Shown: positions 7,985 through 36,300, counted from the stretch's first letter. The stretch: DNA of 64,000 bases from a virus (IMGVR_UViG_3300019766_000011:5668-69667), one strand, 5' to 3'. Notes: generated by a model from the letters alone, not told the origin. Program-made: numbers and translations.

Positions 7985-8223
7985 ACTAATTCAACTCCTT
8001 CAATTATCTTCTTAGAATACTCAAAAGCCAACTTTCCATGTGGCTCTTTTAATTTAGATAATTCATTTATGCATTGTTTCTTAGTCAGCTCGTGCTGTTC
8101 TTTAAGAAGATGACGGACACTTTCCTTAAGAATCCTTAATTTATAACTTTCTAACTTATTTGTAAGTTGTGAGATACTTGAATCCCTTCCAGCCCACTTT
8201 GATATACGTACCGCTATTTGCAT
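7981..8223 (-). CDS. small helical protein, paralog 1 of tandem triplet
   Basis: VRHLLKEQHELTK motif. Confidence 0.6.
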   Translation of the reverse strand: MQIAVRISKWAGRDSSISQLTNKLESYKLRILKESVRHLLKEQHELTKKQCINELSKLKEPHGKLAFEYSKKIIEGVELV

Positions 8224-11719: not shown

Positions 11720-11853
11720 TAGTACTTTCTCCTTTTTTCGAGGTCTTTAATTACCCACTTATTCAATATATAAAAGATAGATAAAGGAATCAAACCAATA
11801 GATAATATTACTAAACAAAATTGAATCTTTTCTGACATTTTAACTCCTCAATT

Positions 11854-12019
11854 ACCGGATGGGTTTTTGTAAAGAATGCAATACTAATCTATTAATCATA
11901 TCTGGTCAACAACCGGATAGGTTTTTGTAGAAAAATACCTCAACAACCGGATAGGTTTCTGTAAAGAAGAATGACCGGATGGGTTTTTGTAGAGATAATC
12001 AACCGGATGGGTTTCTGTA
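11854..12019 (+). repeat. five copies of 18-bp direct repeat ACCGGAT(G/A)GGTTT(T/C)TGTA
   Basis: Copies start at 11854, 11912, 11946, 11974, 12002. Confidence 0.95.
11881..11909 (-). promoter_or_regulatory. sigma70-like promoter driving the leftward replication arm
   Basis: Minus strand TTGACC-17-TAGTAT between repeat copies 1 and 2. Confidence 0.55.
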
Positions 12020-12048
12020 CAGCTGTATTTTTGTAGAGAATTACATCT

Positions 12049-16992: not shown

Positions 16993-17400
16993 ATGCTAAC
17001 AATTAACGCGGCATTGTATGATAGGATATGTAGACTAGAATGGTATTTAATTCGACTAAATAAGCCCTGTATGCCTGTTACCGTTGAAGTAGAAATAAAA
17101 GGGTTTCCCATAGATGAACTAGCTAGGGTCATGTTAGATAATCCTGATGGGGTTTTTACTTCTGTAGTATATAGTGATGGGGAAGAAGTGGATATCTATT
17201 TCAGGTATAAAAGGCCAGCAAATAACCTAGAAATTGAAAAATACTTGAACGATAACCTAAACGGTGTTAAGTATACCTTAGATCTTATTAGTAAACAGAT
17301 AAACCGTAACATGATGGACAAAGTATCACTTTCTAGGTGGATAGATAGAAAATACCAGTCTAGTGGTGTTATCGCTCAAAACCTCTTAAAGTTGTTGTAA
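16993..17400 (+). CDS. early hypothetical protein
   Basis: ORF, last of island; followed by hairpin aaccc-ttaatt-gggtt. Confidence 0.6.
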   Translation: MLTINAALYDRICRLEWYLIRLNKPCMPVTVEVEIKGFPIDELARVMLDNPDGVFTSVVYSDGEEVDIYFRYKRPANNLEIEKYLNDNLNGVKYTLDLISKQINRNMMDKVSLSRWIDRKYQSSGVIAQNLLKLL

Positions 17401-17441
17401 TTCTAGAACCCTTAATTGGGTTTTGTACCTACCACTACCTA

Positions 17442-17606
17442 GATGATAACCATTCTCATTTGTATAAAGTTTAATCAATTATCACAAACCATATAATAAT
17501 CAACCAAACCTTAAACGCCCTGTAAGCCCCTGTACTAAACGCAAAATTTAAACCCTTGCCCTACTACTCTAAAACCCCAAACTCCCTAATAAGAACCATT
17601 CTCACC
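17442..17606. promoter_or_regulatory. two Fur-box-like sites
   Basis: gatgataaccattctcatt 17442 (2 mismatches), aataagaaccattctcacc 17588 (4). Confidence 0.45.
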
Positions 17607-17803
17607 TATCCCTGAAGCAATCCCCATGCCAACATATACACCCATTATCAAACCCACATCAAAATATAATTGAACTGGGACAATTCCCCATAAATAAACC
17701 TTAACCACAATATACCCTTTCTCTTAATAGTGAATAAGTGAGCGTTAGCGAACGAATGAACGTTCTCTTTAATTCCTATTAATATTATAAGTATAATTAT
17801 CTA

Positions 17804-17990
17804 TCCCCCCACTTCCCCCTCTCCCTATCCTTAACCCTTCCCCATTCCCAACCCCTTTTTGGGTATCCCTATCCCCTTTCCCTATCCCCTTTTCCCAGTT
17901 CTTCAGGTAGCTAGGGGCTGTGCTGTCTCTCTCTCGTTCTCTCTTCTTCTCCCTTTTCCTGTCCCTCTCCTTTTCTCCTTTCCCCCCCCT
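17804..17990 (+). repeat. low-complexity polypyrimidine tract (G-runs on minus strand)
   Basis: Repeated cccctt/ccctat units, almost no G on the plus strand. Confidence 0.9.
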
Positions 17991-18006
17991 TAGTGTACAG
18001 TTTAAG
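17985..18006 (+). repeat. 22-bp element CCCCCTTAGTGTACAGTTTAAG, copy 1
   Basis: Identical to 24772..24793. Confidence 0.95.
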
Positions 18007-18470
18007 AGTACCAAAATCGCTACAGGCCACGGGACACTAAGGCTACAGCGTTTTCACGATTTGTACAAAGCCTTGTATTGAGTAGGGTTATTATTGGGGG
18101 ATTCCCGACCCCTTTTATTTAAGGAGTTAAGCCCTAATGTGTATACATTTTGTACACTTTCACTAATTGATCAGGTAGTCACACCCAGCACATTTAGGAC
18201 ATATATGCAACACTATACACATAACCAGTATTGTACATATATACAGTACTAGACCATGGTGGCATATGTCCTTACCATTAATTAGCACCCATGGCAAGGT
18301 ATTAATTACCACCTACCACACACACATATGCACACATTAACCAAGCCACCCTATGCACTTGTAAGAGGTGTTCTATTCAATCCCATACAATCATCCACCC
18401 ACAGGATAGGACCAACACAGGGCCTTACAATAAAGTCAACCCCTCAATTATCATGCCAACTCTTAACACG

Positions 18471-18536
18471 AATGGTAATGCAAATGAGAATGATTCGTAT
18501 CTCAGATATTGCCAGAGAATGAGAAGCATCCCCATC
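18471..18536. promoter_or_regulatory. Fur-box-like sites
   Basis: Hexamer run AATGGT AATGCA AATGAG AATGAT; aatgagaatgattcgtatc 18483 (3 mismatches), aatgagaagcatccccatc 18518 (4). Confidence 0.5.
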
Positions 18537-18591
18537 CCCGGTGCTGCCAGCCCTAGCGATAAAATAAAATTTTAAAATTAAATTACCAATT

Positions 18592-18623
18592 ATGCGGGAT
18601 ATGCGGAAATGCGGGTATTGCGG
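18592..18623 (+). repeat. four (A/T)TGCGG hexamers at 8-9 bp spacing
   Basis: Starts at 18592, 18601, 18609, 18618. Confidence 0.8.
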
Positions 18624-18720
18624 AGGAGAGGGCTTCTAATGTGTTTAAAGAGGAGTATTAGGTCTTTGAGGGAATGTGTGCGCGGGAAGGAGAAAAGCCC
18701 TATAGGAGGGCGTATATATG

Positions 18721-19113
18721 CTATGTGGACTTGATTAAACCATCTTTAGTAACTGTAACTAAGAATCGTGTTAGTACTTCCCTGTTGTCAATCTCCCGGA
18801 TGAATGTAGCATTAAGGTACGGGTTGTATTTTATAATTTCGTGCGCGGGGGATGTATATTCTGTACTTTCACAAACATTCTCAGGCAACTCTCTGAACCT
18901 GAATGGGTTAAAACCTTTACAATTTAGTATGGTTCCAGATATTAATGCATGTACATTCTTTTGCCCGGAATCCCGAACACGCTTCTGTCCTGCCTTGTTG
19001 ATAGAGAAGATACAACCAGTCATCGTTATCTCATCACAATGCCCTACTACTTTATTTTTATACTTTATAGATAATTTACCGTTTGTCACATTCCTGTATA
19101 CTGATACTTTCAT
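18721..19113 (-). CDS. conserved phage hypothetical protein
   Basis: VYRN..SIK..GQKRVR..KNVHA..YNPY family pattern; AGGAG SD. Confidence 0.75.
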   Translation of the reverse strand: MKVSVYRNVTNGKLSIKYKNKVVGHCDEITMTGCIFSINKAGQKRVRDSGQKNVHALISGTILNCKGFNPFRFRELPENVCESTEYTSPAHEIIKYNPYLNATFIREIDNREVLTRFLVTVTKDGLIKST

Positions 19114-19145
19114 TCTATTCTCCTATTGAATTAGATTTAGAGTAA

Positions 19146-19167
19146 CCTCCTAGATCCGTCTAGGAGG
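19146..19167 (-). terminator. hairpin after RNA ligase gene
   Basis: cctcctaga-tccg-tctaggagg. Confidence 0.55.
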
Positions 19168-19178
19168 TATGTAGTTTG

Positions 19179-20135
19179 TTAGAAGTTAGAGAAGAACCAC
19201 TTACGGGCTTTTTCAGATAGGTATTTATTAACCTCTTTAGGGTCAAGGCCACTATCCTCTAAGGTGTCTGATTCTTCTTTGTGAATATCTTTAATAATCC
19301 ATCGTAAGAAGTCACCAGTACCTTTTTGAGATGGCTCAATATTATTTTGGGTGAATACTTCATCCATACCTTGTTTTAATCGGTTTTCCGTAACAGTATA
19401 ATCTACAAAGGTTCTAATATTGGCCATCTTGACTGTATCTACAGGGGCTAGTGTCTTTACCTTAGATACTGAGTGCTTCTGTCCTTTTACTTTGAATCGG
19501 AATAGACCATGTGATGAATTATGAGTCCAAACGATGCCCTCACCTACCCCGGATACTCCAAGATACTTACCAATAGGACATTCCTCTTCTACACGCATTG
19601 TAGCCTGTTCTAATAACTCCTGAGATTCTTCAGGTCGGCTAAAATCAATATCAATACTGAATGTAGGGAACTCATTAATACAGTAGATAGGTGCTTTACA
19701 TATATAATTAAGCGAAGGAGGCAGTACAAGCCAGCGTTCTCCGATCTTTACTCCAAAGATAATAAACATCTTAGGAAGTTCTGCAAGAGCCACACCTTTT
19801 TGAATATTTTCGCCACACCACTCCCCAAATAGGGTTATAATGTTGGAATCATCTTTAACACTTTTACAGATACTAATAAGGTCATCTAGATATTCATCAC
19901 AGAATTTAGCAAAACCTGCATTATCGTCACCTAAGCTAATAACCCTGTTACGACTTTGTGTAAGATACTCCCCAGTTGATGGGTCATATTGGAATCCTGC
20001 ATTAGTACCATGGGCTTTAACAGTTCCCTTAAAATTAAGAGTAGTCTCTGAAGGACCAAGTGTGGAGCATCTATTCACTTCCTTGACAACTTGACGATAC
20101 TGATTAATTGACGGGTATTTTTCAAATTCTAACAT
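19179..20135 (-). CDS. Rnl2-family RNA ligase
   Basis: Motif I KAHGTN, QSRNR, LFGEWCG, GEGIVW, FKVKG. Confidence 0.85.
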   Translation of the reverse strand: MLEFEKYPSINQYRQVVKEVNRCSTLGPSETTLNFKGTVKAHGTNAGFQYDPSTGEYLTQSRNRVISLGDDNAGFAKFCDEYLDDLISICKSVKDDSNIITLFGEWCGENIQKGVALAELPKMFIIFGVKIGERWLVLPPSLNYICKAPIYCINEFPTFSIDIDFSRPEESQELLEQATMRVEEECPIGKYLGVSGVGEGIVWTHNSSHGLFRFKVKGQKHSVSKVKTLAPVDTVKMANIRTFVDYTVTENRLKQGMDEVFTQNNIEPSQKGTGDFLRWIIKDIHKEESDTLEDSGLDPKEVNKYLSEKARKWFFSNF

Positions 20136-20139
20136 AATA

Positions 20140-20538
20140 TTATCCTTTATTTGTATTGGTTAAAGTGAGTGTTGGGTTTTCAGATAGTATTTTCTTCTTA
20201 AGTACTTCCATCTGATGGATATTACTTTCTATCCTTTCAAGTTCGTTACGTTTCGCTTCCATCTCTTTAAAGATAGCATGGGCTTCTCTTTTTTTACGTT
20301 CTTCTTCTGTTTCAGAACATCGACTACACTTGTTAATATCCAATGGAATAGATATAAGTTCTGAGTACGAAGCCATAAAGCGATTACAACAGCAGCAATA
20401 GACATCATACCAATCATGATCCCGGATAGAAGGGATAGGTTCTTCAGATTTAAGGGTATTAATAGAATCATCTACAGCTTCTTTAACGGACTCTAACATG
20501 GACTTCAAATTATCTTTACTTATTGGATCTTTCATCAT
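20140..20538 (-). CDS. hypothetical Zn-ribbon/coiled-coil protein
   Basis: CxxC..CxxC followed by charged helix. Confidence 0.6.
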   Translation of the reverse strand: MMKDPISKDNLKSMLESVKEAVDDSINTLKSEEPIPSIRDHDWYDVYCCCCNRFMASYSELISIPLDINKCSRCSETEEERKKREAHAIFKEMEAKRNELERIESNIHQMEVLKKKILSENPTLTLTNTNKG

Positions 20539-20960
20539 TAACTCCTAATTAGTTTAAGGATTTTATATAAACCTTCAGTATCTCAGAAAACCTTCAGGTT
20601 TATTTAAGCAAGAACCTACTTCACAAGAACTGAAAAGTCGTTAGGTTCTAATGGGTACTTATTAGGAGTAAGTCCTCCGAATACGAAAATGTAATTAACT
20701 CCCGAATCAGGAACTACTTCACAATAAGTGTAAGTACCAAAGGTATCTACTATCGTTTGTGTGAATATTTCCATTAATAACTCCTATTTGTCAGATTTAA
20801 GAAACAATTTAGTACATTGCTTTAGTACTACCACAGTGTATACATTTATATTTAGTACGTCCACTACTATCTTTACAAATTATTTTAAACCTGTAACTAT
20901 ATGGTCTATGAAACTGTTTAGACCATTTATGTCCAAATAACCAACATAATAGAGTCTTCA

Positions 20961-21170
20961 TTAAATTACCTCCAAATTAAATTCTAGGTAGGCACCATTA
21001 GCTGGCCAGTGTCCTAAAATATAAACTAACCATTTACGGGTGTACTCCATCTTACCCGTATGTTTGTTCCTTGAGAGGCTATCAGGGCCATCTAGACGAT
21101 GACCTACGATACCTACCTTTCCTTTATATTTCCCTGTTAGCACTTTAACTTGCTTATCCATTAAACTCAT
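20961..21170 (-). CDS. KOW/SH3-like small protein
   Basis: VKVLTGKYKGKVGIV KOW-like motif. Confidence 0.6.
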   Translation of the reverse strand: MSLMDKQVKVLTGKYKGKVGIVGHRLDGPDSLSRNKHTGKMEYTRKWLVYILGHWPANGAYLEFNLEVI

Positions 21171-21207
21171 ATTAACTCCTAGTTATTAAATTTAATAAAG
21201 CCACCAG

Positions 21208-21399
21208 CTAATTATTATCAACTACTTCATTAAGTAACTGTATGCCTTTTTGATTCCAACCTTTACGCCAACCTTCTAGGTAAATATATCTACGAGGATT
21301 CTGACCACCTGAAGGAGGTGTAGGTTTCTTCATATCATATCCATGGATACGACCCTGTACAAATTCATCATAAATCTCAATGTTTGATATTTCTAACAT
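21208..21399 (-). CDS. hypothetical protein
   Basis: ORF; YLEGWRKG motif. Confidence 0.55.
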   Translation of the reverse strand: MLEISNIEIYDEFVQGRIHGYDMKKPTPPSGGQNPRRYIYLEGWRKGWNQKGIQLLNEVVDNN

Positions 21400-21635
21400 T
21401 ATGAAATACCTTTATGATTATTGGAAACATATCGGTTAACGTGATTTAAACCCTCAGTTAATTTATCAATTTGTTTTTGCTGTTCACATATCTTCCAAGC
21501 CAACATGTAGGTTAGTCCAGAAGCTCCTGATAGGTTTTCATCTATTACAGCATGTTTAAAAGCTTCAGAATCCCAAATCTCTTTTAAAAGATCCTTAACC
21601 GGAGTTTCTTTAAGGTGTTTGATACTTTTAGCCAT
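21399..21635 (-). CDS. hypothetical protein
   Basis: ORF with GAGG SD. Confidence 0.6.
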   Translation of the reverse strand: MAKSIKHLKETPVKDLLKEIWDSEAFKHAVIDENLSGASGLTYMLAWKICEQQKQIDKLTEGLNHVNRYVSNNHKGIS

Positions 21636-21636
21636 T

Positions 21637-21962
21637 CTAGTTACCTCTCAACTTATTAATAATACGATTACGAACTTGAACATCAGTTTCACCTAATCTT
21701 CTTTTATCTAAATCATATAAGTCTAACTGTTCATCTAACTGTTATTACCTGTTAAGATTTCGATACCGTCATCGTCTAGTTCTGGAAGCTCTTCTCTTAG
21801 TTTATTAGCCTGATCTATTGACATTATCAAATTAACAGGACCAATGCGTACATTGACCCTTTCTGGGAAATGTTGTGGATCTGGGTTCTTAAGTTTTACT
21901 ACTTCGGGATCACCATCACTACATACAATATTAACAAGAGCTACAGGACTATCAGATTCCAT
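21637..21962 (-). pseudogene. apparently frameshifted gene (MESDSP.. continuing in another frame as QLDEQLDLY..RNRIINKLRGN)
   Basis: Coding-like continuation 21637-21742 lacks its own start; frame break near 21743. Confidence 0.45.
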
Positions 21963-22501
21963 TATATTCCTCCTTTTATTATGTAACCAATCCATAATAA
22001 CAGACCAACAATTAAGAAGGAAGACATAATTGGATAATCCATAAAATGAGGGACGGTATTTTCAATGTCGTTACCTAAATTAGGACCAATCGTTTGATTA
22101 GGTTTTATATTATTTATTGAATTATCTGCATATATTAAACGAGAGAAAATATAATTCAATTTAGTGTTATCAAAATAACCATATAGTATAAGGATATTCC
22201 TAAAGGTTAGTCCATCTAATTTATGGGGATCATCATTAGTGCTCAAGAAATATTGAGTCTTTTCATTACCTTTAGTATCTACCGTTACAATACGACTAGG
22301 GACTACACGGTAATTATTATAATAAATAATAACTTCCTTATAGTAAGTTGCTTCACGCTCTCTTTTGATATATTCCATTACGGAATCTAGAGTTGCATAA
22401 AGGATTATAATATTATTACTATTACTTGGTTTTAAAATAGCCGGATATCCACTAACAACCTTAGTAATTTTGATACCATTATCATCTGTTTTACATGCCA
22501 T
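21962..22501 (-). CDS. membrane-anchored hypothetical protein with terminase-ATPase-like fragment
   Basis: FLSTNDDPHKLDGLTFRNILI; C-terminal TM helix. Confidence 0.6.
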   Translation of the reverse strand: MACKTDDNGIKITKVVSGYPAILKPSNSNNIIILYATLDSVMEYIKREREATYYKEVIIYYNNYRVVPSRIVTVDTKGNEKTQYFLSTNDDPHKLDGLTFRNILILYGYFDNTKLNYIFSRLIYADNSINNIKPNQTIGPNLGNDIENTVPHFMDYPIMSSFLIVGLLLWIGYIIKGGI

Positions 22502-22503
22502 TA

Positions 22504-22746
22504 TTACTCTCCTATTTCTGAAGGATTATTAGGTTCATAAACTGGAATAAATTTAGTCATATTCATGAATAAATCATTACTTGTTCCGACTTCTTGCCAG
22601 AAGTCAACAGGTCCTATTGGTTTGTACTTATTTAATCGACAAAGTTTTTTACTACCACATGGGAAGTAAACCCAGCAAAACTGTTGATCTTTTAGTAAGT
22701 CATTATACCTATCAACTTCAATCCACTCATCTAATTCTTTTAACAT
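22504..22746 (-). CDS. hypothetical protein
   Basis: ORF. Confidence 0.6.
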   Translation of the reverse strand: MLKELDEWIEVDRYNDLLKDQQFCWVYFPCGSKKLCRLNKYKPIGPVDFWQEVGTSNDLFMNMTKFIPVYEPNNPSEIGE

Positions 22747-23190
22747 TTAAAGACCCTTAAATCGATATGAGTAACCTGCACCTACAAGCGAATCTGGTAC
22801 TAATATAAATGTGATTCCAACATCTCCTAGGTACTTAGTGTAACCAAAAGATGGGAGGATTACATATTTATCTAGAGTATGCATACTCTCTGGGTATCCG
22901 GAGATTATAGATAAATCGAAACTAAACCCGGTAGCCTTAAAGTCCCAACGATTAGTAACTAGAAAAGATTGACGACAGTGTGTATTGATGTAAGCCCCTA
23001 CACCTAAGTTTTTATAACGATAAGCTACTAGGTCATGTTCTTCGTTAAAACACTCCCAAGGCTTCACAGTTCGATCAAAGTGGTATGTCCACAGTCCTAA
23101 GTCTAATACATGTTCAGGCTCTTTAGCCATTGCTGGCTGACAAGATACTAATGTAAAAACCAGTGTAATTAAAGTAATTAATTTGTTCAT
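22747..23190 (-). CDS. putative outer-membrane beta-barrel protein (PagP-like pattern)
   Basis: Signal peptide ..AMA, YHFDR..NEEH motif, alternating hydrophobic strands, terminal YSYRF. Confidence 0.5.
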   Translation of the reverse strand: MNKLITLITLVFTLVSCQPAMAKEPEHVLDLGLWTYHFDRTVKPWECFNEEHDLVAYRYKNLGVGAYINTHCRQSFLVTNRWDFKATGFSFDLSIISGYPESMHTLDKYVILPSFGYTKYLGDVGITFILVPDSLVGAGYSYRFKGL

Positions 23191-23208
23191 AAATTGATCT
23201 CCTTTTGT

Positions 23209-23234
23209 ATGGAGGCGATTTATTTCGCCTCCAT
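23209..23234 (-). terminator. hairpin
   Basis: atggaggcga-tttatt-tcgcctccat. Confidence 0.55.
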
Positions 23235-23242
23235 ATTATTAG

Positions 23243-23572
23243 TTAGTTACGAATCCCACTAATAATACGATATTTAGGTGGGTTCCTTACATGAGATTGA
23301 ATAGGTACACCTGTTTGCGTTGCATAAGTTTTAACTTTACGTACTTGATAAAAGGGTACTCCGTAAAGTGTACCATAATTAAGTAGTTCAACTGTTAAAT
23401 TACTTAGTTCTCTTTTATTTTCAATTTCTAAGAGTAAAGAAAGATAGTAATCTTCTTCTACATAAACTTCAAGAGGTTCGGGCTTACCTGTCTTCCTCGT
23501 ACTTTCATACCTCCTAATGTGAATTGAATTAGCTAAATCATCAAACAAGGGGGTAGTAGATACACTAGCCAT
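23243..23572 (-). CDS. hypothetical protein resembling an HK97-fold capsid fragment
   Basis: P..VYV...YYLSL...GTLYGVPF pattern. Confidence 0.6.
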   Translation of the reverse strand: MASVSTTPLFDDLANSIHIRRYESTRKTGKPEPLEVYVEEDYYLSLLLEIENKRELSNLTVELLNYGTLYGVPFYQVRKVKTYATQTGVPIQSHVRNPPKYRIISGIRN

Positions 23573-23994
23573 TATAACAAACCCTTAAACCATTTGGTAA
23601 TCTTACGGTATTTAACAACTGCTTTATACATGATACGTGTGGTGCACTTATCAACACCCTCTTCCTTTAGTAAGAATCGGAAAGCTTTATCACGTAGTTC
23701 ACCATTATCATCTTGATCACACATATGATCGTGAATAAGTGAAGGTATCTTAAACTCTTCATCAAGTGGATCACCTATAAGTGAATGGAAACCATATGGA
23801 ATAGATGCACTAAATCGGTAATCTTCTGCTATAGTATCTTCATGTAGAGAATATGTATAGGAATGTCCTTGTACCTTTGCAGCCTTAGAATCCCAGTACC
23901 TAATCTCAAATGACACATAATCGTTTAATTGGTGACGTACACCCTTGATACTCGAATCTACTTCTGAATAATCTATTGATAATATTTTAATCAT
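23572..23994 (-). CDS. DUF1353-like protein
   Basis: FSASIP, LIHDHMC, D..F..LL..EGV..MYKAV pattern. Confidence 0.7.
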   Translation of the reverse strand: MIKILSIDYSEVDSSIKGVRHQLNDYVSFEIRYWDSKAAKVQGHSYTYSLHEDTIAEDYRFSASIPYGFHSLIGDPLDEEFKIPSLIHDHMCDQDDNGELRDKAFRFLLKEEGVDKCTTRIMYKAVVKYRKITKWFKGLL

Positions 23995-24003
23995 ATCTTC
24001 TCC

Positions 24004-24390
24004 TTACACTCTGATAATTTTAGGTTTCTTATGCTTAGGAGATCTAGACTCACCAAGCATACTATAATGAATTTCATCATCTTGTTCAAATTCTAATATA
24101 TATTGAGTGATGAAGTCAATCATTTTTACAACAGTTTTCATAGAGCATCCTCGGATACCCGGAATTGACCTAACTTTCTTAAAACTAAATGGCCTTAATA
24201 CGATAGCACCATCTTCAATACTTTTACGGTGGCACCAAACATACTTCCAATGGTTAGCCTCATCGTAGCTTACAGACCATACGTACCCGTGAGGTACAAG
24301 TCCGTCATAGCGTTCACCTGTACCATAGATAACTCCCATATGGCGACCATTTATATCACCTGTTAATGCATTCTTGAATTTTCGACCCAT
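24004..24390 (-). CDS. hypothetical protein
   Basis: ORF with AGGAGG SD. Confidence 0.65.
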   Translation of the reverse strand: MGRKFKNALTGDINGRHMGVIYGTGERYDGLVPHGYVWSVSYDEANHWKYVWCHRKSIEDGAIVLRPFSFKKVRSIPGIRGCSMKTVVKMIDFITQYILEFEQDDEIHYSMLGESRSPKHKKPKIIRV

Positions 24391-24639
24391 AGACCTATAC
24401 CTCCTGTAGGCTCTTGTGAGGTTATTTTAACTTAAACCTAAGTAACGCCATTAATTATCTGCTAAATAGCGTCACAGCTATACTAGCGAGGCTTACGACC
24501 CTTAAACCCATCCACAATATCACCCCAAATGCTAAATATTATAATTAATATTAAAATTATTGTGAATTTCAGAAAAGTTAGTATCCCCTTCAAACGAGTA
24601 AATTTACGTAATATCTTCATATTTCTCCTATCCTACGAT

Positions 24640-24793
24640 TAATAATTATTAATAATATAATACTAAATATAATAATACAAGTAATAATATAAATATAATC
24701 ACAGACGAAGTGACGAGCGAGAGCGAGGAGCTGAAGTAACCTGTGATTCTATTCCACCTTTTCCTATCTTTCCCCCTTAGTGTACAGTTTAAG
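24640..24793 (+). other. origin-like element: AT-rich tract, GA-rich hairpin, pyrimidine tract, 22-bp box (copy 2)
   Basis: AATCACAG 24697-704 / CTGTGATT 24741-748 flanking GACGAGCGAGAGCGAGGAG; CCCCCTTAGTGTACAGTTTAAG 24772-24793. Confidence 0.55.
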
Positions 24794-24796
24794 GAT

Positions 24797-24825
24797 TTGA
24801 CAGGTACTTTTTAAGGGTGTAAAGT
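24797..24825 (+). promoter_or_regulatory. sigma70 promoter of the polymerase operon
   Basis: TTGACA-17-TAAAGT, 3 bp downstream of the 22-bp box. Confidence 0.65.
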
Positions 24826-24859
24826 AGGTTAATAATTTTAAGTAGTGAGGAGTAGATTT

Positions 24860-26182
24860 ATGGCGATTTCTAGCCCTATAAGAAAGGAGGTAATTAAGAG
24901 AGAACACACGTTCATATCTCAAGAGTATCTACTTGCAGACCCTGATATGCCTATACTTGAGGCAGTTTGTACCCTATACCTTGATGAGTATCCATGTGTA
25001 AGAATACCTTCCAAAATGAGGGAAACTATTTCTTGCTTTTTAGCCAATTTAATTGTGATTCAAAGGATCAATTCTGAGCAGTTTTTGAGTTTGTACAAAC
25101 ACCGTATTAATCGGACCTTCTATACTACCAATTTTACGGCCTTTAAATGGAACCATACGGTGATGAATAATTTGATTAAATTACTAGAGAGGGAATCAAT
25201 TATTGAAGGAAGTTTAGGTTATAAACTAGAGGAGAGTATGCCATCCCTCTACAGGTTAACAATTGATCAGAAATTACTTGAGAATGTTACAAAAGCTAAG
25301 GTAGTTATTAATAATAAAGCTGCCCGGTATGTTGTGTTACGACCCGGTAGTTATGATTATGACAATAAGAAGGAGATCATGGCTAATACTAAGACTTTGA
25401 AAGATCTACCTGATCGTACCAAGAGGGGTTTCAGCCAACATAAACAGCTGGCCAATAATCTTCATAACTTAATGAAAAAGAATTCACTAATGAATGGTAG
25501 AGGTGACGAACTCATACCTAATTACTTGTGTTGGGTTTTTACGGAATCCTTTGAAAAACATGGACGTATGTACTTTAATTTACAGAATATGCCATCAAAG
25601 GATAGGAAGAAACTTACAATAAATGGGGAGGAAGTCGTTGAAATAGATTACGATAACTGTAGTGCTCATATCATGTACGCTATGAATGGATTACAATTAA
25701 CAGGAGATGCCTACCCTACATCTCCTAAATTTACACGTAAGATCTCTAAGAAGTGCTTTACTGTTATGGGTAATGTATCAAGTTCAGCGAGAGCCATTGA
25801 AGCTGTGTACCAAGATATGAAACTACAGCTTAGTACAGAAATGCCAAACAAGGATAAGAAATTAGCAGCTATGTCTAACGTATACCTTAAGAAGTCCATA
25901 CGTAGCGCTATCGAAGCTTTAGAGTTGCAGCATGACCAAATTATAGGGGTAGATTCTTTTGGATTGTATCAACGTAATGGATTGGATGTTATGGCAATTG
26001 ATGCTAAGGTAGCAATGTTGGTTACGCAACACTTCGTAGGTAAAGGTGAAGTTATAATACCTATTCATGATAGTTTTATAGTTAGAAAAAGCTTGACGCA
26101 AGAATTAAAAGATGTAATGATTTCATCTTATAAAGCAGTACTTGGTAGTGAGTACACCATTACAATAACAGAGGAGGGGTAG
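24860..26182 (+). CDS. TV-Pol-like polymerase (family A / T7 RNAP-related fold)
   Basis: HGRMY..LQNMP..R..TINGE..VEIDY (motif A), GDAY, RKISK (motif B), IPIHDSFIV (motif C); start ATG 24860 with GAGGAG SD. Confidence 0.75.
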   Translation: MAISSPIRKEVIKREHTFISQEYLLADPDMPILEAVCTLYLDEYPCVRIPSKMRETISCFLANLIVIQRINSEQFLSLYKHRINRTFYTTNFTAFKWNHTVMNNLIKLLERESIIEGSLGYKLEESMPSLYRLTIDQKLLENVTKAKVVINNKAARYVVLRPGSYDYDNKKEIMANTKTLKDLPDRTKRGFSQHKQLANNLHNLMKKNSLMNGRGDELIPNYLCWVFTESFEKHGRMYFNLQNMPSKDRKKLTINGEEVVEIDYDNCSAHIMYAMNGLQLTGDAYPTSPKFTRKISKKCFTVMGNVSSSARAIEAVYQDMKLQLSTEMPNKDKKLAAMSNVYLKKSIRSAIEALELQHDQIIGVDSFGLYQRNGLDVMAIDAKVAMLVTQHFVGKGEVIIPIHDSFIVRKSLTQELKDVMISSYKAVLGSEYTITITEEG

Positions 26183-26183
26183 T

Positions 26184-26318
26184 ATGTCAGAGTATGTAGT
26201 CGATGAGGAGTTATACATTGGAAGTACTGATGAAGAATACATTTCAAAATTAACAGAAGATTTTAATAATTCAGAAGACGGTTTCTTTAGCATCTCATTA
26301 GGTGATCTAGATGACTAA
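26184..26318 (+). CDS. 44-aa highly acidic protein
   Basis: MSEYVVDEELYIGSTDEEYISKLTEDFNNSEDGFFSISLGDLDD; GAGGAGG SD; overlaps the RNAP start. Confidence 0.6.
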   Translation: MSEYVVDEELYIGSTDEEYISKLTEDFNNSEDGFFSISLGDLDD

Positions 26319-28359
26319 TCTAGTTGATACCCAATTAGAGTTAGAAGATACCATGGTAGATATGAGTATCGAGAAGATGGAAGAAGCCATGGAGTCTGGT
26401 ACTTTCCACTCTCCACAGGTACAGATGCTTATGGAAGATACTCTTGAAAAGTTAACCAAAATCTACAAGGAAGATAAGTACCTTAAGGATCTTAAGTACC
26501 CTAGACAAGCAGCTTTTGGGATTCTTTGTTATATCATCCCATCTGTATTTGAGGGTTACGATTTACGTATAGCTGCCTTGGATGCAGCTGGACAGCATTT
26601 CCCAGATGAGCCACTTAAGCGTCAATTGCAACTTGGTACTCGTATGGTTACAGTTATCCCCGGATTTACTACAGGTTATGATGAACGTAATCATCTTATC
26701 ATAGAGGGAACTGAAGAAACTAAGAATTCCCTAGTGGATCAAGCACAGGAACTTGCCGAGTTATACCCTAAGCTGAAACCTATGATTGTTAAACCTAAGC
26801 AATGGGAGAAAGGGGAGAACGAAGGTGGTTACCTCTCAATTCGTAAACCACTTATTAGTCAACGACATAAGACTTGTAGAAATCCTTCAACAAAAGTTTT
26901 ATCTGCTATTAACAAAATGCAGAACACAGCTTTCAAAGTTAATAAAAAAGTTTTGGAAGTGGCTAATGCTATTGGTATTGAAGAAGAGAAACCTGAAAAG
27001 AAGAAGAGAGGTGAAAAGGCTAAGGCATTTAAACTTAGATTGAAAGCTATCGACTCTACTAACTCGGATAGTAATAAAATATTGTCTATCGCCAATGAGT
27101 ATAGGGATTTTGATGACTTTTGGTTCACTGTTTATGCAGATTACCGAATTAGAGTTTATTATTCTCAACATTATTTTAATGGACAAGGTAATGACCTATC
27201 TAGGGGACTGTTACAGTTTAGTAGTGGTAAGCCGTTAACAAGTGAAAAAGCTAAAAGATGGTTCCTTATCAATATAGCTAACTTAGCAGGTAAGGATAAA
27301 CTATTACTTAAAGATCGTGTTAAGTGGGTTAAACGTAACCACGATAAGATACTAGGTTGGGCTAATAATCCTGTAGAAGATCAAGGTTGGAGAGAGGGAT
27401 CTATCGCTAAAGATGGTAAACCTTGGCAATTCTTACAATCTTGTTTTGAGTATAAAGAGTATATCGAAAAAGGTGATAACTTTATTAACTACCAACCAGT
27501 AGCTTTGGATGCTGTATGTTCCGGTATCCAATTTTGGTCAGGATTACTATTGGATGAAAGTGGTGCTAGTAGTGTAGCCATGATGCCGGGAGATGTTATC
27601 AGTGACATTTACACTGAAGTAATGACTCAAGGTATTGATGCTATGACTAATGATGAGTTTAATGAATTTGCTAAAGAGTGGTTACGAAGTAATTTACTAA
27701 CTCGTAAACTTTATAAAACTCCAACTATGACGATATGTTATTCAGCAGGTAAAAAAGCTTTTAAAAAATATGTAAGAGACTTTAGTAAAGAGTTTATGTT
27801 CAAAGATAGAGAAGGTGCTATCACTTATATGGTAGATAATCTCATGAAAGCCATTAACTCTGTAGTTAAAGTTCAAAGGGGTATGGATTTCCTTAAAGAT
27901 TGTGTCAGAGGTAAAGGGGGAGTTGATTACACATCATACCTTGGTGCTCATATAGTACATAAGCCACTTGTTATGTACAAAGATAAAGTTGAGTGCATCG
28001 TTAATGGACAGAGATTCCAGATGGTACTAATGCGTAAAGGTTCTAAAGTTGATGATCGAAAGATCCTTACAGCTATTGCTCCTAACTTTATTCATAACCT
28101 AGATGCAACACTTTTAATGATGGTTGTTAATGCTTGTCCTAATATTAATAGTTGGTTATTGTGCCATGACTCTTATGCTACACATGCTGCTGATATTCCA
28201 GAAATGGCACAGCAATGTAGGAAGTGTTTTGTTGAGTTACTTAGTCAACCTTTACTTGAAAGGTTTAGAGAATCAATGAATGCTCAAGATATTAAGTTAC
28301 CTGAAAAAGGTAGTTATGATCTTAAAAATGTATTGAAGGCTCCTTACTTTTTCAACTAA
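26311..28359 (+). CDS. single-subunit T7-like RNA polymerase, short (682 aa)
   Basis: PMIVKPKQW, DYRIRVY, QGNDLSRGLLQF, LDAVCSGIQ (A), RKLYKTPTMTICY (B), APNFIHNLDA, HDSY (C), YFFN end. Confidence 0.93.
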   Translation: MTNLVDTQLELEDTMVDMSIEKMEEAMESGTFHSPQVQMLMEDTLEKLTKIYKEDKYLKDLKYPRQAAFGILCYIIPSVFEGYDLRIAALDAAGQHFPDEPLKRQLQLGTRMVTVIPGFTTGYDERNHLIIEGTEETKNSLVDQAQELAELYPKLKPMIVKPKQWEKGENEGGYLSIRKPLISQRHKTCRNPSTKVLSAINKMQNTAFKVNKKVLEVANAIGIEEEKPEKKKRGEKAKAFKLRLKAIDSTNSDSNKILSIANEYRDFDDFWFTVYADYRIRVYYSQHYFNGQGNDLSRGLLQFSSGKPLTSEKAKRWFLINIANLAGKDKLLLKDRVKWVKRNHDKILGWANNPVEDQGWREGSIAKDGKPWQFLQSCFEYKEYIEKGDNFINYQPVALDAVCSGIQFWSGLLLDESGASSVAMMPGDVISDIYTEVMTQGIDAMTNDEFNEFAKEWLRSNLLTRKLYKTPTMTICYSAGKKAFKKYVRDFSKEFMFKDREGAITYMVDNLMKAINSVVKVQRGMDFLKDCVRGKGGVDYTSYLGAHIVHKPLVMYKDKVECIVNGQRFQMVLMRKGSKVDDRKILTAIAPNFIHNLDATLLMMVVNACPNINSWLLCHDSYATHAADIPEMAQQCRKCFVELLSQPLLERFRESMNAQDIKLPEKGSYDLKNVLKAPYFFN

Positions 28360-28558
28360 AATGGGTAAATTCCGGACACTTACATGTTCGGAATTCCTAA
28401 AATATCCCCTACAGCCCCCGTATTTACTGGATTCCCTTACCCCCTTACAACGGGAGTAAAAGCGAACGGACTTTCTAGGTTCAAGAGATCTCAAGCGAAC
28501 TTATGATTTATTCGTTTATCCTCCCACAACATGTGCTCCTCCTCAAGGTGACTAACTA

Positions 28559-28615
28559 GCCACTACCTCTATGGATCTTTTTATTATTCATTATTTCGAG
28601 GTAGGGGCTTTTTTA
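28559..28615 (+). terminator. possible intrinsic terminator between RNAP and late operon
   Basis: ctacctc...gaggtag stem with large loop followed by T-run. Confidence 0.4.
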
Positions 28616-28639
28616 TTCTGATAGATTTGAGGAGAACCT

Positions 28640-29128
28640 ATGAGTACTACTAATTCTAAAAAACCTAAACCGAAGATAGCCGCTCCTTTTACCAAAGGTG
28701 ATGTGAGGGCTTCAAACGGTGGTAAAGCTAAAAAGAAAAATAGGATAGGCCGTGAATCCGCTATAGCTACATGTAGGCGTATGAATTTTGATTGTATGGA
28801 ACAACTCATACTTATAGCTCAGCGTAATGAACATGCGTTAGGGTGGAAAGAAGGTGAGATTACAGCAGCTGCATCTCTTAGTGCGACTAAAGAAGTAATG
28901 TCTTACATTATGGTTAAGAAACAAAATGTAGCTATAGTTGAAGGTGGAGGTTCTACGGGTGGCGGTGTCGAAGTAAGAATTACAGCCCCTATGAATAGTC
29001 AAGAGAAACGAGTTATACATTTAGAGGATAAAAAGGGAACATCTATAGAATTACCTGTTATGTCTCAGGAGGATTTAGATTCTATTAATGATGGAGTTAT
29101 TGATGCTGAGTTTATTGAGGTAGATTAA
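28640..29128 (+). CDS. putative terminase small subunit
   Basis: Position before TerL; PFTKGD.R..GG N-terminal motif; acidic IDAEF tail. Confidence 0.7.
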   Translation: MSTTNSKKPKPKIAAPFTKGDVRASNGGKAKKKNRIGRESAIATCRRMNFDCMEQLILIAQRNEHALGWKEGEITAAASLSATKEVMSYIMVKKQNVAIVEGGGSTGGGVEVRITAPMNSQEKRVIHLEDKKGTSIELPVMSQEDLDSINDGVIDAEFIEVD

Positions 29129-29130
29129 CT

Positions 29131-30930
29131 ATGTCTGATAACTACGAGTACATAGATGTATTCAAATCCCGACCTATTAACATAGGTAAGGTTAAAGGAA
29201 CAAATCAATTCGTTTATTATGAAATTGATCCTTTAACAGGTAAATACCTAATAGATCCATACTATGAAGAACATGAGCAATACCGTATTGCTTATAATCA
29301 TCAAGTATCTAAAGCGAGAGCTGGTATTATTTCTCATGAAGATGCAAATGATTTATCAGCACAGCCGGGACCTCAATGGTATTTTCTTCGTAATCAAGCA
29401 GATGTTATTATTTATGGTGGTGCTGCTGGTGCTGGTAAGACTTATGCAATAACTCTAAATCCTTTAACTACTATGGATCGTGAGCGTTTTAATCACGTTA
29501 TATTTCGTAGAACAAAAGAGGATTTAAAGAAATCAGGTGGTCCACTTGATGAAGCTAAATCCATGTACGCCAAGATTCCCGGTATGGAATACAATGTAGG
29601 TGAGAAGGAATTCTCATTCCCTTTCCTAACTAAACCCGGAGAACCTGAACGTCCTGAAGTTAAAGGAATGAATGTCCGTTTTGAAGGTCTTGAACATGTG
29701 GACTCTGTTCTGAAGTTCCAAGGTGCTCAGATTGAGAGTATTGTCTTTGATGAATTAACGCATTTTGAAGAATCCCAATTTACTTATATGATGACTCGTA
29801 ACCGTACAGGTACAGGACTTCCTCATAAGTGTACTGTTAAAGCGACTACTAACCCGGAGACGGGTTCTTGGGTACGTAAATGGTTAGATTGGTATTTATG
29901 GCCATTTGGTTCTGTTTATCCAGAAGGGTATAAGTCACCTACGGGTGAAGATGTATCTGGCCAAGAGTGTGGTGGACTTCCTATCAGAGAACGTTCCGGT
30001 AAGATTACTTACTACATTATACACCCTACACAGGGTCTTCAATTTAGAACTACACGTAAAGAGCTTCAAAGGGAATTCCCAGATCAGTGTATGCGGGAAG
30101 GTAATATTCTTACGGGTGATCCAGAAGACCCTATGGGAGCTATAAAATCTTTTACTTTTATATCAGCATCTGTATACGATAATCCTAAGATGCTAATGTC
30201 GAATCCCGGTTACATCTCCAGCCTTAAGAATCAGCCTAAACATATAGCTGATGGTTTGTTAGGTGGTAATTGGGATTCAACTTCCGGTGGTGGTCTATAC
30301 TTCAAAAGAGAATGGATTACCGAGTTTAAAGGTGGTAGTCGAGAAATAGAAAGACTACCTAACATCCCCTTAACTTATCTACGTTATTGGGATAGGGCTG
30401 CAACAGAACCGTCACTTGAATACCCTGATCCAGATTGGACAGTGGGTGCAAGGATGGCTAAAGACCATGATGGTAACATCTATGTAATAGATATTGAACG
30501 AGATCGTAAAGATCCCGGTGGTGTTGAAGACATGATGATGAATGCAGCTAGGAGGGATGGTATAGGGTGTCCACTATGGGTCGAGCAAGATCCCGGTTCT
30601 GGTGGTAAGTCCGATGTTAGTAACATCATACGTAAGTTTAGTAAGTACCCAGTAAGAGTTCATAGGCCAACTAAAGATAAGTTAACTAAAGGTCTATCCT
30701 TTTCAGCAGCTTGTCAAAACGGTATTGTTTACTTCGTAAAGGGCAGGTACTTAAACACCCTATACCATGAGTTAGAAACCTTTGATAATGATGGTAAAAA
30801 GAAAGACGATCAGTGGGATGCTGTAACAGGTGGTTATAATCAACTATCTGAATCAAATGCTCTAATATTCGAAATTGATGACCCTAATGAAGATCTTTGT
30901 GGACCTTCTCACTTTACAGAAAATTACTAG
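29131..30930 (+). CDS. terL: terminase large subunit
   Basis: QPGPQ, Walker A GGAAGAGKT, Walker B FDELTHF, TTNP, nuclease WDRAA..DWT..DDQWDA. Confidence 0.95.
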   Translation: MSDNYEYIDVFKSRPINIGKVKGTNQFVYYEIDPLTGKYLIDPYYEEHEQYRIAYNHQVSKARAGIISHEDANDLSAQPGPQWYFLRNQADVIIYGGAAGAGKTYAITLNPLTTMDRERFNHVIFRRTKEDLKKSGGPLDEAKSMYAKIPGMEYNVGEKEFSFPFLTKPGEPERPEVKGMNVRFEGLEHVDSVLKFQGAQIESIVFDELTHFEESQFTYMMTRNRTGTGLPHKCTVKATTNPETGSWVRKWLDWYLWPFGSVYPEGYKSPTGEDVSGQECGGLPIRERSGKITYYIIHPTQGLQFRTTRKELQREFPDQCMREGNILTGDPEDPMGAIKSFTFISASVYDNPKMLMSNPGYISSLKNQPKHIADGLLGGNWDSTSGGGLYFKREWITEFKGGSREIERLPNIPLTYLRYWDRAATEPSLEYPDPDWTVGARMAKDHDGNIYVIDIERDRKDPGGVEDMMMNAARRDGIGCPLWVEQDPGSGGKSDVSNIIRKFSKYPVRVHRPTKDKLTKGLSFSAACQNGIVYFVKGRYLNTLYHELETFDNDGKKKDDQWDAVTGGYNQLSESNALIFEIDDPNEDLCGPSHFTENY

Positions 30931-35232: not shown

Positions 35233-36300
35233 ATGCCAACTCCTAATATCAGTGATGTTCACATTTCTCGCCCGTTATCTAACATTTCTATCCAAATGAT
35301 TCAAGAAAGCGAAGATTTCATTGCTACTAAAGTTTTCCCTGCTGTACCTGTACGTCACAAAGCTGATACTTTTGTAACTTATGATCGTGCAAGTCGTAAC
35401 ACTCAAGCTATGGAAGTTCGTGCGCCCGGTACTGAAACCGTTGGTGGCGGCTGGAACTATGGTGAAGACACTTACGTGTGTAAAGTATACGGTTACCACG
35501 TAGATATTGATGATCAAACTCGTGATAATGCTGACCCAGCATATGATCTAGAAGCTGAAGCAGCTGAAGACTGTGGCCACAAAGCTTTACTACAACGTGA
35601 AGATAGTTTCATGAACTCTTTCTATAAGGCGAGTGTATGGGGTCGTGAGTTCCAAGGTGAAGATGCAGCCCCTGCATCAGTAGGTGCAGATACAGCAGCT
35701 ACAGCTACTCGTGGTAAGATCTCTCGTTTCAGTCAGTTTAACCGAGCTGATTCTGAGCCGTTTAAATTCTTCAAGCGTGTTATCAATGAGCAGAAGCTTC
35801 TTTCTGGTTACAAGCCGAATACCTTAATCTTATCTCAAGATATCTTTGATGTTCTTTCTGAGCACCCAGATTATCTAGAGCGTGTTACTGGTGGTTCTAC
35901 TGATTATGTAGGTACTGAGCTACAGCTTAGTCAACTTGCTGGTATCATTGGTGTTAACCGTGTACTACTTGCTAATGCAGTTGAATGGGTTGGTGATGAG
36001 CTACCTGAGGCTCATACTAGCAACAATGCATTTAATGATGCTAATGGTAATACCTATATGGGTGACCAGAAAGCTATGCTTTTCCTATACGTCAAGCCGG
36101 GTAAGATGGGTTTGAAATCTGTATCTGCTGGTTGTGTATTTGAGTGGACAGGTTACCGTGGTACTGTATCTAATGGTGCTAAAGTTAAGAAATTCCGTAT
36201 GGAAGCTCTTGAATCAGATCGTATTGAAATTAGCTTAGCGTATGACATGAAAGTGTTAGCTAAAGATTGCGGTACTTGGGTATTTGATTGTATCGCTTAA
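35233..36300 (+). CDS. major capsid protein
   Basis: 355 aa, strongly biased codons, LSNISI..FIA..VFP.VPV, KPNTLIL; followed by terminator. Confidence 0.92.
   Translation: MPTPNISDVHISRPLSNISIQMIQESEDFIATKVFPAVPVRHKADTFVTYDRASRNTQAMEVRAPGTETVGGGWNYGEDTYVCKVYGYHVDIDDQTRDNADPAYDLEAEAAEDCGHKALLQREDSFMNSFYKASVWGREFQGEDAAPASVGADTAATATRGKISRFSQFNRADSEPFKFFKRVINEQKLLSGYKPNTLILSQDIFDVLSEHPDYLERVTGGSTDYVGTELQLSQLAGIIGVNRVLLANAVEWVGDELPEAHTSNNAFNDANGNTYMGDQKAMLFLYVKPGKMGLKSVSAGCVFEWTGYRGTVSNGAKVKKFRMEALESDRIEISLAYDMKVLAKDCGTWVFDCIA

Follow-up and report, generated by a model that had tools for sequence, protein, structure and literature searches.

Introduction

The TV-Pol family was described by Iyer, Abhiman and Aravind in 2008 (Biol Direct 3:39; PMC2579912), who defined it by a thumb, a beta-hairpin with an invariant Arg, two Asp residues in the palm, and a fingers insert carrying an Asp and an RxxxK motif. 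In that description, a subset of the family has an N-terminal TV-PolN domain and lies beside integrases, resolvases, or transposases, other members are linked to a D5-like helicase, and the Microcystis phage Ma-LMM01 carries an inserted TV-Pol element (PMC2579912). Here, we analyze ORF-A, an open reading frame (ORF) of 440 amino acids (aa) that is followed, after one tiny ORF, by the gene for a 682-aa T7-type RNA polymerase (RNAP) in an uncultivated virus genome. The stretch that we analyzed, hereafter the window, comprises 64,000 nucleotides (nt) and corresponds to bases 5668-69667 of a 69,667-bp IMG/VR virus record of the class "direct terminal repeats"; its features are listed in Table 1. 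We find that ORF-A adds a phage member to the known, computationally defined TV-Pol family.

The closest system with a known activity is CcPol, which is encoded by SCCmec and belongs to the TV-Pol set of Iyer et al. According to Bebel et al. (2020, PMC7581432), CcPol has polymerase activity and, in combination with the OB-fold protein MP, constitutes a primase that uses deoxynucleoside triphosphates (dNTPs) on single-stranded DNA (ssDNA). The same study describes that CcPol extends primers with nucleoside triphosphates (NTPs) as well as dNTPs, the latter being far better incorporated, that CcPol-MP has reverse-transcriptase activity in primer extension, and that no other TV-Pol had been characterized by 2020 (PMC7581432). 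Thus, the statement in a preliminary description of this DNA that TV-Pols are known from computation holds for the prediction of 2008 but has been overtaken by the work on CcPol. According to a later article (Rice 2023, PMC10061031), CcPol lacks the TV-Pol N-terminal domain. In the literature that we searched, we found no bench-tested TV-Pol that has an N-terminal domain, and no description of a TV-Pol paired with an RNAP.

ORF-A resembles CcPol, which is a stand-alone A-family polymerase domain on a mobile element with a small ORF directly downstream in the same operon. Beyond this, the two loci differ. The CcPol operon ends in a helicase, whereas ORF-A and its small ORF are followed by the RNAP. 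Furthermore, MP is an OB-fold ssDNA binder, whereas the small ORF of the window is acidic and, at 44 aa, presumably too small to form an OB fold; its conservation ends with a 95%-identical strain.

ORF-A has a family-A polymerase fold and the TV-Pol marker residues

An AlphaFold (AF2) model of ORF-A, built on 64 homologues (the A1 alignment), reached a pLDDT of 87.3 and a pTM of 0.88, and it has the right-hand polymerase fold of the family-A/T7 type that the preliminary description had anticipated. When the model was compared with known folds (VIA), the 20 best rows contained nothing but family-A DNA polymerases and RNAPs of the T7, N4, or mitochondrial type, with Z values of 13.2-6.5, and most of these rows cover model residues about 150-440. 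They include apPOL (Z 13.2, root-mean-square deviation [rmsd] 4.2 over 226 residues), Aquifex Pol I (Z 12.7), yeast mitochondrial RNAP (mtRNAP; Z 12.2), and T7 RNAP (Z 11.5, rmsd 3.7 over 250 residues). Among the matches listed by Foldseek for the PDB, all are family-A DNA polymerases (best E 7.4e-6), and a neighboring cluster in the ESM Atlas, automatically named "DNA polymerase family A palm domain-containing protein", gave a TM of 0.71.

This likeness is one of fold and motif only. No Pfam family matched ORF-A at E <= 1 or any of the 64 A1 members (64/64) at E <= 0.01, NCBIfam and PADLOC gave no match to ORF-A, and no exonuclease match was found in Pfam or PHROGs. Against the PDB, the best E was 0.27 in a sequence search and 0.048 in a profile search, the latter to the winged helix of ribosomal protein S19e. 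Similarly, PF00476 at E <= 10 matched only the 956-aa PolA on the phage genome and not ORF-A, and when the A1 profile was compared by hhalign with the window's own RNAP and PolA, the probabilities were 4.6% (motif C region only) and 0.8%, respectively.

To measure conservation, we aligned 132 sequences: the 64 A1 members and 68 of the 80 bacterial ORFs described in the next section, the 12 ORFs shorter than 380 aa being dropped. All four sequence features that define TV-Pols can be placed in this alignment, with seven of the nine marker residues invariant (132/132). The beta-hairpin Arg is found in G235-R236 (132/132), located in a predicted strand pair (224-228 and 234-238). The two palm Asp residues are D263 and D404 (132/132), on predicted strands 257-264 and 400-409. 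The Asp and RxxxK of the fingers correspond to D283 (122/132), R293 (124/132), and K297 (132/132), with R293-x3-K297 lying in a predicted helix (293-303). R249, E261, and Y285 are likewise invariant (132/132), and H403 is kept in 131 of the 132 sequences. ORF-A also has the minimal family-A core of thumb, palm, and fingers without nuclease domains. The 440-aa protein with intact motif A and motif C aspartates that had been reported at this locus is present, the motifs being E261-I-D263-Y and I402-H403-D404-S405.

Ahead of the core, residues 27-156 form an additional domain, which gave a pLDDT of 74 and a pTM of 0.71 when folded alone. Its leading VIA matches are winged-helix domains (JetA, ORC2, Cdc6, Fur/PerR, MarR, TFE, and ribosomal proteins), with a few rows from other kinds of protein (Z 7.2-5.1), and the Foldseek matches to PadR, LmrR, and RTP were not significant (E >= 0.014). 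These comparisons give moderate support to the prediction that the N-terminal domain is winged-helix-like. In this respect ORF-A differs from TV-PolN as described, which was predicted to be all-helical (PMC2579912), whereas the ORF-A N-terminus is predicted to combine helices with the small sheet of a winged helix.

The family occupies bacterial islands and a few phages

An exhaustive HMMER search with ORF-A returned 3016 representative clusters (50% identity) at E <= 1e-3, of which 453 remained at E <= 1e-10; conservation in the family is found in the C-terminal ~200 residues. From a genome scan that yielded 112 relatives, we kept 80 bacterial loci, and the A1 profile matched the central ORF in every one of them (80/80). 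Neighboring genes, taken from crude ORF calls up to a flank limit of 4 kb, were clustered by blastp. Within this distance, an integrase cluster occurs at 30 of the 80 loci and a resolvase cluster at 16, with one or the other at 36/80; among loci with full 4-kb flanks on both sides, the fraction is 24/45. A Pfam check of sampled members confirmed the identity of both clusters (5/5 for the integrase and 4/4 for the resolvase).

The bacterial relatives of ORF-A thus share the neighborhood of lambda-type integrases and gamma-delta-type resolvases with the TV-Pols that carry TV-PolN, and ORF-A itself shares with these TV-Pols the minimal core, the marker residues, and an extra N-terminal globular domain. 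In addition, the taxa listed by Iyer et al. and the hosts of ORF-A relatives overlap in Methylobacterium, Rhodobacterales, alpha proteobacterium BAL199, Desulfobacterota, and Bacteroidota. While the genomic context of TV-Pols is found for the family, the copy in the window differs from the TV-Pols of Iyer et al. in its surroundings: it lies in a lytic-type phage, at the junction of the two gene arms and beside a T7-type RNAP, and neither a recombinase nor a D5 helicase adjoins it. Altogether, features and context support the label "TV-Pol-like" for ORF-A, and it is on these two grounds that we assign it to the TV-Pols.

In phages, the family is sparse, being found in 50 of 50,697 records (tblastn, 1e-5). 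The sole match of ORF-A in curated libraries is phrog_4756, a family without assigned function (1.9e-52). Its members ORF100 of Vibrio phage ICP1 (L111 5114-6781; 555 aa, hypothetical; A1 profile E 2.6e-59) and gp150 of Aeromonas phage 4L372D belong to the same family and the same length class as ORF-A, and in these large Vibrio and Aeromonas phages (110-145 kb) the gene stands among small early-type genes. Full-length structural look-alikes of ORF-A in BFVD have E values of 2e-21 to 1.8e-15. The phrog_4756 members are annotated as hypothetical, with the exception of one BFVD entry named "DNA polymerase".

Among near relatives, the gene appears to be under strong purifying selection. ORF-A differs from the homologue P0001 at 11 of 440 residues, and the 1796-nt contig that we took, from its length and match, to be that of P0001 shows 79 nt differences, from which a rough estimate places the ratio of nonsynonymous to synonymous substitution rates at about 0.1 or less.

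The adjacency of ORF-A and the RNAP is confined to one lineage

The second polymerase of the locus has matches to PF00940 (2.8e-69; 234.5 bits against a cut-off of 22) and phrog_414 (2.5e-141), and its residues 131-681 align to T7 RNAP 244-883 (HMMER, E 8.7e-52). The T7 residues with catalytic roles (D537, R627, K631, Y639, and D812) fall in three aligned motifs: LDAVCSG in motif A is aligned to T7 FDGSCSG (D537), TRKLYKTPTMTICYS in motif B to T7 TRSVTKRSVMTLAYG (R627, K631, Y639), and CHDSY in motif C to T7 IHDSF (H811/D812).

In its N-terminal part, the enzyme departs from T7 RNAP, which is ~200 aa longer. A full T7-like promoter-binding domain was not found in it, as there is no counterpart of T7 residues 1-243 and RPOL_N scored 25 bits, below its cut-off of 30.1, over residues 138-187 only. 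The closest RNAPs, those of Vibrio phages V6Aob and henriette 12B8, are 37% identical over residues 130-682. The first 130 residues are common to the relative in locus L008 only: they have no counterpart in T7 or V6Aob, and henriette gave a weak 32% match over residues 3-86. N4 RNAPII is split, whereas the 682-aa RNAP is a single chain, and the small subunit of the N4 enzyme matches weakly (6dt7_A, E 3.7e-7). Judging from these alignments, promoter recognition by this RNAP probably differs from that of T7. A whole-genome search for a repeated promoter-like motif gave none with more than two good copies.

We compared the arrangement of the two genes across relatives at increasing distance. In a 95%-identical strain (a 71.2-kb contig), the locus is colinear over 24400-28700, with insertions and deletions (indels) confined to two intergenic stretches and none between 24691 and 28474. 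In locus L007, the upstream side is kept, with proteins 74-81% identical. The sole divergent relative with context is L008, in which the RNAP (54% identity over residues 1-380) is on one strand and the ORF-A homologue (35% over its full length, 41% in the best segment), geneX (47.5%), and geneY are on the opposite strand. The order geneX, ORF-A, RNAP is kept in L008, with ORF-A and its own promoter inverted so that they head the geneX arm. GeneX and geneY adjoin the TV-Pol gene in both lineages.

Outside this lineage, each gene was found without the other. The TV-Pol family is carried by ICP1, PAc, 4L372D, and KLEP7, all of which lack PF00940 (4/4; the window's own genome served as positive control), and the two phages with the closest RNAPs, V6Aob and henriette 12B8, lack the TV-Pol family (2/2; positive controls worked). 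Given the inversion in L008 and these two sets of phages, the adjacency is a trait that a single small lineage has inherited, and even within that lineage co-transcription is not kept. Co-folding the N-terminal domain of ORF-A (A5, 160 residues) with the full RNAP gave a score of 0.10 and a mark of 0.32, which speaks neither for nor against binding. The operon of two polymerases in the preliminary description is thus no conserved unit, and our comparisons do not support a functional coupling between its enzymes. The two-polymerase operon is a lineage-specific gene order and by itself no pointer to new biology.

Two observations concern the neighbors of these genes. GeneX (128 aa, no family) and geneY (140 aa, DUF1353, with a weak PHROG match to "tail assembly chaperone") occupy 23572-24390 on the minus strand of the window and 2771-3642 on the plus strand of L008. 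In Pseudaeromonas phage KLEP7, a 1457-aa hypothetical protein (gp195; L006 7896-12269) is encoded two genes past the TV-Pol homologue; a search of this phage with PF00940 gave one first-look candidate and none at E <= 0.001.

Conserved elements precede ORF-A

A sigma70 promoter had been described ahead of ORF-A, and a matching site is indeed present. In the region, there are 21 sigma-70-like sites compared to 18.8 +/- 4.2 in shuffles, and since this is no enrichment, the promoter scan by itself proves nothing. Conservation, on the other hand, supports the site as the putative promoter of ORF-A: both hexamers are kept in L007 (74% protein identity) with a different spacer, and TTGACA begins 63 nt ahead of the ATG in both the window and L008, with a shared AAGTAGT in the leader.

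Upstream of this site lies a conserved non-coding element whose inverted repeat arms (24692-24704 and 24741-24753) are 92% complementary. A 33-nt block within it (24703-24735) is identical in L007 (about 665-730). As ssDNA, the element folds no better than shuffles (z -0.97) and forms no stable hairpin; it may be a protein-binding site. By eye, the divergent region of L008 has a GAGCG/GCGA-type motif and an AT-rich tract, and that of the window also holds an AT-rich tract and a pyrimidine tract.

Between this element and the promoter is a 22-nt box, of which the genome has two exact copies, as well as a further copy with 3 mismatches inside the gene for the terminase large subunit (TerL). Its 17-nt core, at <=3 mismatches, has 3 matches compared to 0.43 +/- 0.62 in shuffles. 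Each 22-nt copy stands behind a pyrimidine-rich tract, which at the 17985 copy is about 190 nt long, and the box is partly kept in L007. We considered the box as a multi-copy phage promoter and rejected this, given only two exact copies. The upstream elements could be operator or origin elements and, as such, candidate targets of the winged-helix-like domain.

A candidate role in site-directed priming

Our proposal for ORF-A, which we hold at roughly even confidence, is that it acts as an early, DNA-site-directed primase-polymerase. Because a sigma-70-type promoter of its own precedes the gene, the host RNA polymerase is expected to transcribe it, and would do so early. The winged-helix-like domain would then set the protein on a specific DNA site, for which the element at 24692-24753 is a candidate, and the polymerase core would start or extend a short strand before the PolA replisome takes over. 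The RNAP gene would ride on the same early transcript, so that the RNAP is ready for the downstream virion genes. The link between the two polymerases would accordingly be one of position and timing with no physical partnership. What our analysis shows is the fold and the motifs of ORF-A, its place in the family as judged from features, and the gene order with its variation; that the protein binds DNA and primes, which nucleotides it prefers, and that the promoter is active and the genes are co-transcribed are matters of inference. The proposal builds on the position of ORF-A as first gene after a divergent intergenic region in both the window and L008, on the precedent of dNTP priming by CcPol-MP, and on the ORC/Cdc6-type matches of the N-terminal domain. 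Among the three roles that the preliminary description had put forward (origin priming, a second transcriptase, and a specificity partner for the RNAP), origin priming is our best guess.

Several results weigh against this proposal. To begin with the protein itself, all winged-helix matches of residues 27-156 have Z <8. The residue at +5 from the motif A Asp, where in our register PolA has its steric-gate Glu, is Ser in ORF-A and His in 109 of the 132 aligned relatives, and the position of PolA Y766 and T7 Y639 is Asn in ORF-A and in 123/132; because of these residues, nucleotide preference cannot be read from the sequence. With a TOPRIM-type primase, a Dda-like helicase, and PolA among the phage's own products, there is no obvious need for another priming enzyme. 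An origin candidate of a more classical type also exists 13 kb from ORF-A, namely an iteron-like array of five 29-nt direct copies in another divergent intergenic region (11848-12024), whose copies are 72-100% identical to the reference copy at spacings of 58, 34, 28, and 28. CcPol alone extends primers and does not prime (PMC7581432), and ORF-A has no OB-fold partner directly downstream. In contrast to the D5-linked TV-Pols and to CcPol/Cch2, it also shares no operon with a replicative helicase, its neighbors being the RNAP downstream and, upstream, the 128-aa no-family protein followed by the DUF1353 protein. The downstream genes of four phage homologues are mutually unrelated, with no small neighbor conserved. 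Finally, the A1 profile found no first-look candidate and nothing at E <= 1 in the whole Ma-LMM01 record, a search for which that record offered no positive control.

We regard it as unlikely that ORF-A is instead a selfish or hitch-hiking cassette of mobile-element origin that stands outside the replication and transcription programs of the phage. Such an origin would fit the integrase- or resolvase-bearing islands of the bacterial relatives, the patchy distribution in phages, and the TV-Pol element inserted in Ma-LMM01 (PMC2579912). It would also fit the inversion in place of gene and promoter between the window and L008, and the larger divergence between these two for ORF-A than for the RNAP and geneX. 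However, neither the window nor L008 has a recombinase gene or terminal repeats flanking ORF-A (inverted repeats around the cassette were none beyond chance-sized), the locus is kept across lineages whose proteins are only 35-54% identical, and the catalytic residues are invariant under what appears to be strong purifying selection in near relatives.

An alternative that we judge improbable is that ORF-A makes RNA, either as an RNA primase or as a second, site-specific transcriptase producing short RNA at one or a few sites. Its motif C (HDS) is as in T7-type RNAPs and unlike the motif C of PolA, which we take to be HDE; the RNAPs rank level with the DNA polymerases in the fold search; and the steric-gate Glu of PolA, in the register that we assume, is absent. 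On the other hand, T7 RNAP selects ribonucleoside triphosphates through Y639, where ORF-A has Asn, and the 440-aa protein lacks a T7-type specificity loop or promoter-binding domain. As for precedent, ancestral primase (RNA polymerase) activity was proposed for TV-Pols (PMC2579912), and CcPol accepts NTPs in primer extension, but the only characterized TV-Pol primes with dNTPs only and strongly favors them (PMC7581432).

ORF-A might also serve another transaction, such as translesion or gap-filling synthesis, reverse transcription, or counter-defense, with priming being optional. The reverse-transcriptase activity of CcPol-MP in primer extension (PMC7581432) and the place of the gene among small early-type genes in large Vibrio and Aeromonas phages are consistent with this, but with no PADLOC match, no conserved partner or context for defense or repair, and nothing positive for any single role, we find it quite unlikely.

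Finally, that ORF-A or its winged-helix-like domain supplies promoter contacts in trans to the shortened RNAP, a partnership put forward earlier that has little but adjacency in its favor, is very improbable. The two genes do lie side by side in the window and in L008, nothing in the RNAP corresponds to T7 residues 1-243, and TFE-type winged helices are among the weak fold matches. However, the genes are divergent in L008, and one occurs without the other in 4/4 and 2/2 phages as described above. Invariant columns are also far scarcer in the N-terminal than in the C-terminal half of ORF-A (window versus P0009, A2), whereas RNAP residues 1-380 are 54% identical, and a pure adaptor needs no invariant active site.

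Returning to site-directed priming, we extend the proposal to the winged-helix TV-Pols in general, with doubt. In this doubtful generalization, enzymes such as ORF-A and ICP1 ORF100 would be self-contained, sequence-specific primase-polymerases that read a gene-adjacent site and start de novo, with no helicase-bound or SSB-like partner. If true, lytic phages would have a third route of origin firing besides DnaG and AEP primases, and in the window lineage a single early transcript would supply both the origin-firing enzyme and the late-gene RNAP.

The family merits bench work more than the gene order of the window does. The winged-helix TV-Pols are numerous (3016 clusters) and occur in bacterial islands as well as in well-studied phages. 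One of the latter is ICP1, a model phage of Vibrio cholerae in which the function of the family is tractable. Knowing this function would add a mechanism of priming or initiation to the biology of phages and islands, and it would provide a test of the idea of Iyer et al. that TV-Pols resemble the ancestor of PolA and T7-type RNAPs.

Gene cluster and genome context

The coordinates of the locus and of the genes to which it was compared are collected in Table 1.

Table 1. Features of the window, with positions counted from its first base
Feature	Position	Strand	Remarks
PolA, 956 aa	1954-4824	-	phrog_17 2.8e-78; PF00476 2.7e-16
Primase	8214-9137	-	phrog_239 3e-34; Toprim_2 21.6 bits, just below the 22.1 cut-off
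Conserved non-coding element	24692-24753		between divergent arms; purine-rich GAGCG-type block and 13-nt inverted repeat
22-nt box	24772-24793	+	abuts -35 hexamer; second exact copy at 17985-18006
Sigma-70-like site (putative promoter)	24797-24825	+	TTGACA, 17 nt, TAAAGT; 10/12 matches
ORF-A, 440 aa	24860-26182	+	ATG 24860 (most likely start) behind GAGGAG Shine-Dalgarno
Winged-helix-like domain (predicted), ORF-A residues 27-156	24938-25327	+	probably the TV-PolN region of Iyer 2008
Polymerase core, ORF-A residues 157-440	25328-26179	+	reduced thumb, beta-hairpin, palm, fingers
Catalytic codon D263	25646-25648		
Catalytic codon D404	26069-26071		
Acidic ORF, 44 aa	26184-26318	+	
T7-type RNAP, 682 aa	26311-28359	+	
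Terminase large subunit	29131-30930		rightward virion arm
Major head protein	35233-36300		rightward virion arm

A mechanical ORF call starts ORF-A at GTG 24845, which gives 445 aa. We consider the ATG at 24860 the most likely start because the GAGGAG site precedes it and because two close homologues, P0001 and P0002, have the same length of 440 aa and the N-terminus MAISS.

The tiny acidic ORF and the 682-aa RNAP follow ORF-A on the plus strand as had been claimed. The acidic ORF has 14 Asp/Glu and 1 Lys (net charge about -13) and a strong Shine-Dalgarno sequence (GAGGAGGGG); it begins 1 nt past the stop of ORF-A, and 8 nt of it overlap the start of the RNAP gene. Its sole homologue cluster is 95% identical and lies on the 71.2-kb contig, and there was no match in Pfam, PHROG, or PADLOC and no counterpart in L008. 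The acidic ORF is real, tightly coupled on both sides, and poorly conserved.

Downstream of the cluster come the virion genes, including those for the terminase and the major head protein, in agreement with the position ahead of the virion operon given in the preliminary description. A 280-nt non-coding gap (28360-28639) separates the RNAP from the first gene of the virion arm. It gave no Rfam match and no terminator-like site, has six small indels in the 95%-identical strain, and may hold a candidate late promoter. Rfam matched no family anywhere in the region 17000-30000.

The genome encodes three enzymes of one fold, as noted earlier, namely PolA, ORF-A, and the RNAP, and the primase was found as well. 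The gene for the Dda-like helicase lies 18 kb from ORF-A, and other phage genes encode an RNA ligase, a DNA ligase, a ribonucleotide reductase, a deoxynucleoside monophosphate kinase, and a thymidylate synthase. An SspB-like protein, a homologue of the ClpXP adaptor (PF04386, 2.7e-17), is encoded on the minus strand (6687-7217) in the interval from the helicase gene to the primase gene.

A 123-bp repeat joins the ends of the record (63878-64000 of the window equals genome bases 1-123). We rejected a physical terminal repeat: since the thymidylate synthase ORF contains this sequence in its 5' portion, the repeat probably reflects overlapping ends of a circular or permuted assembly.

As to the identity of the phage, we considered an N4-like phage and rejected it, since there is no giant virion RNAP (the largest ORF has 956 aa) and TerL is <33% identical to any phage record. 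Among the 50,697 phage records, none had a TerL at least 33% identical, and megablast found no close relative in the phage collection or in viral_contigs. Near-identical DNA is present in contigs from microbial-mat, seawater, and marine metagenome runs.

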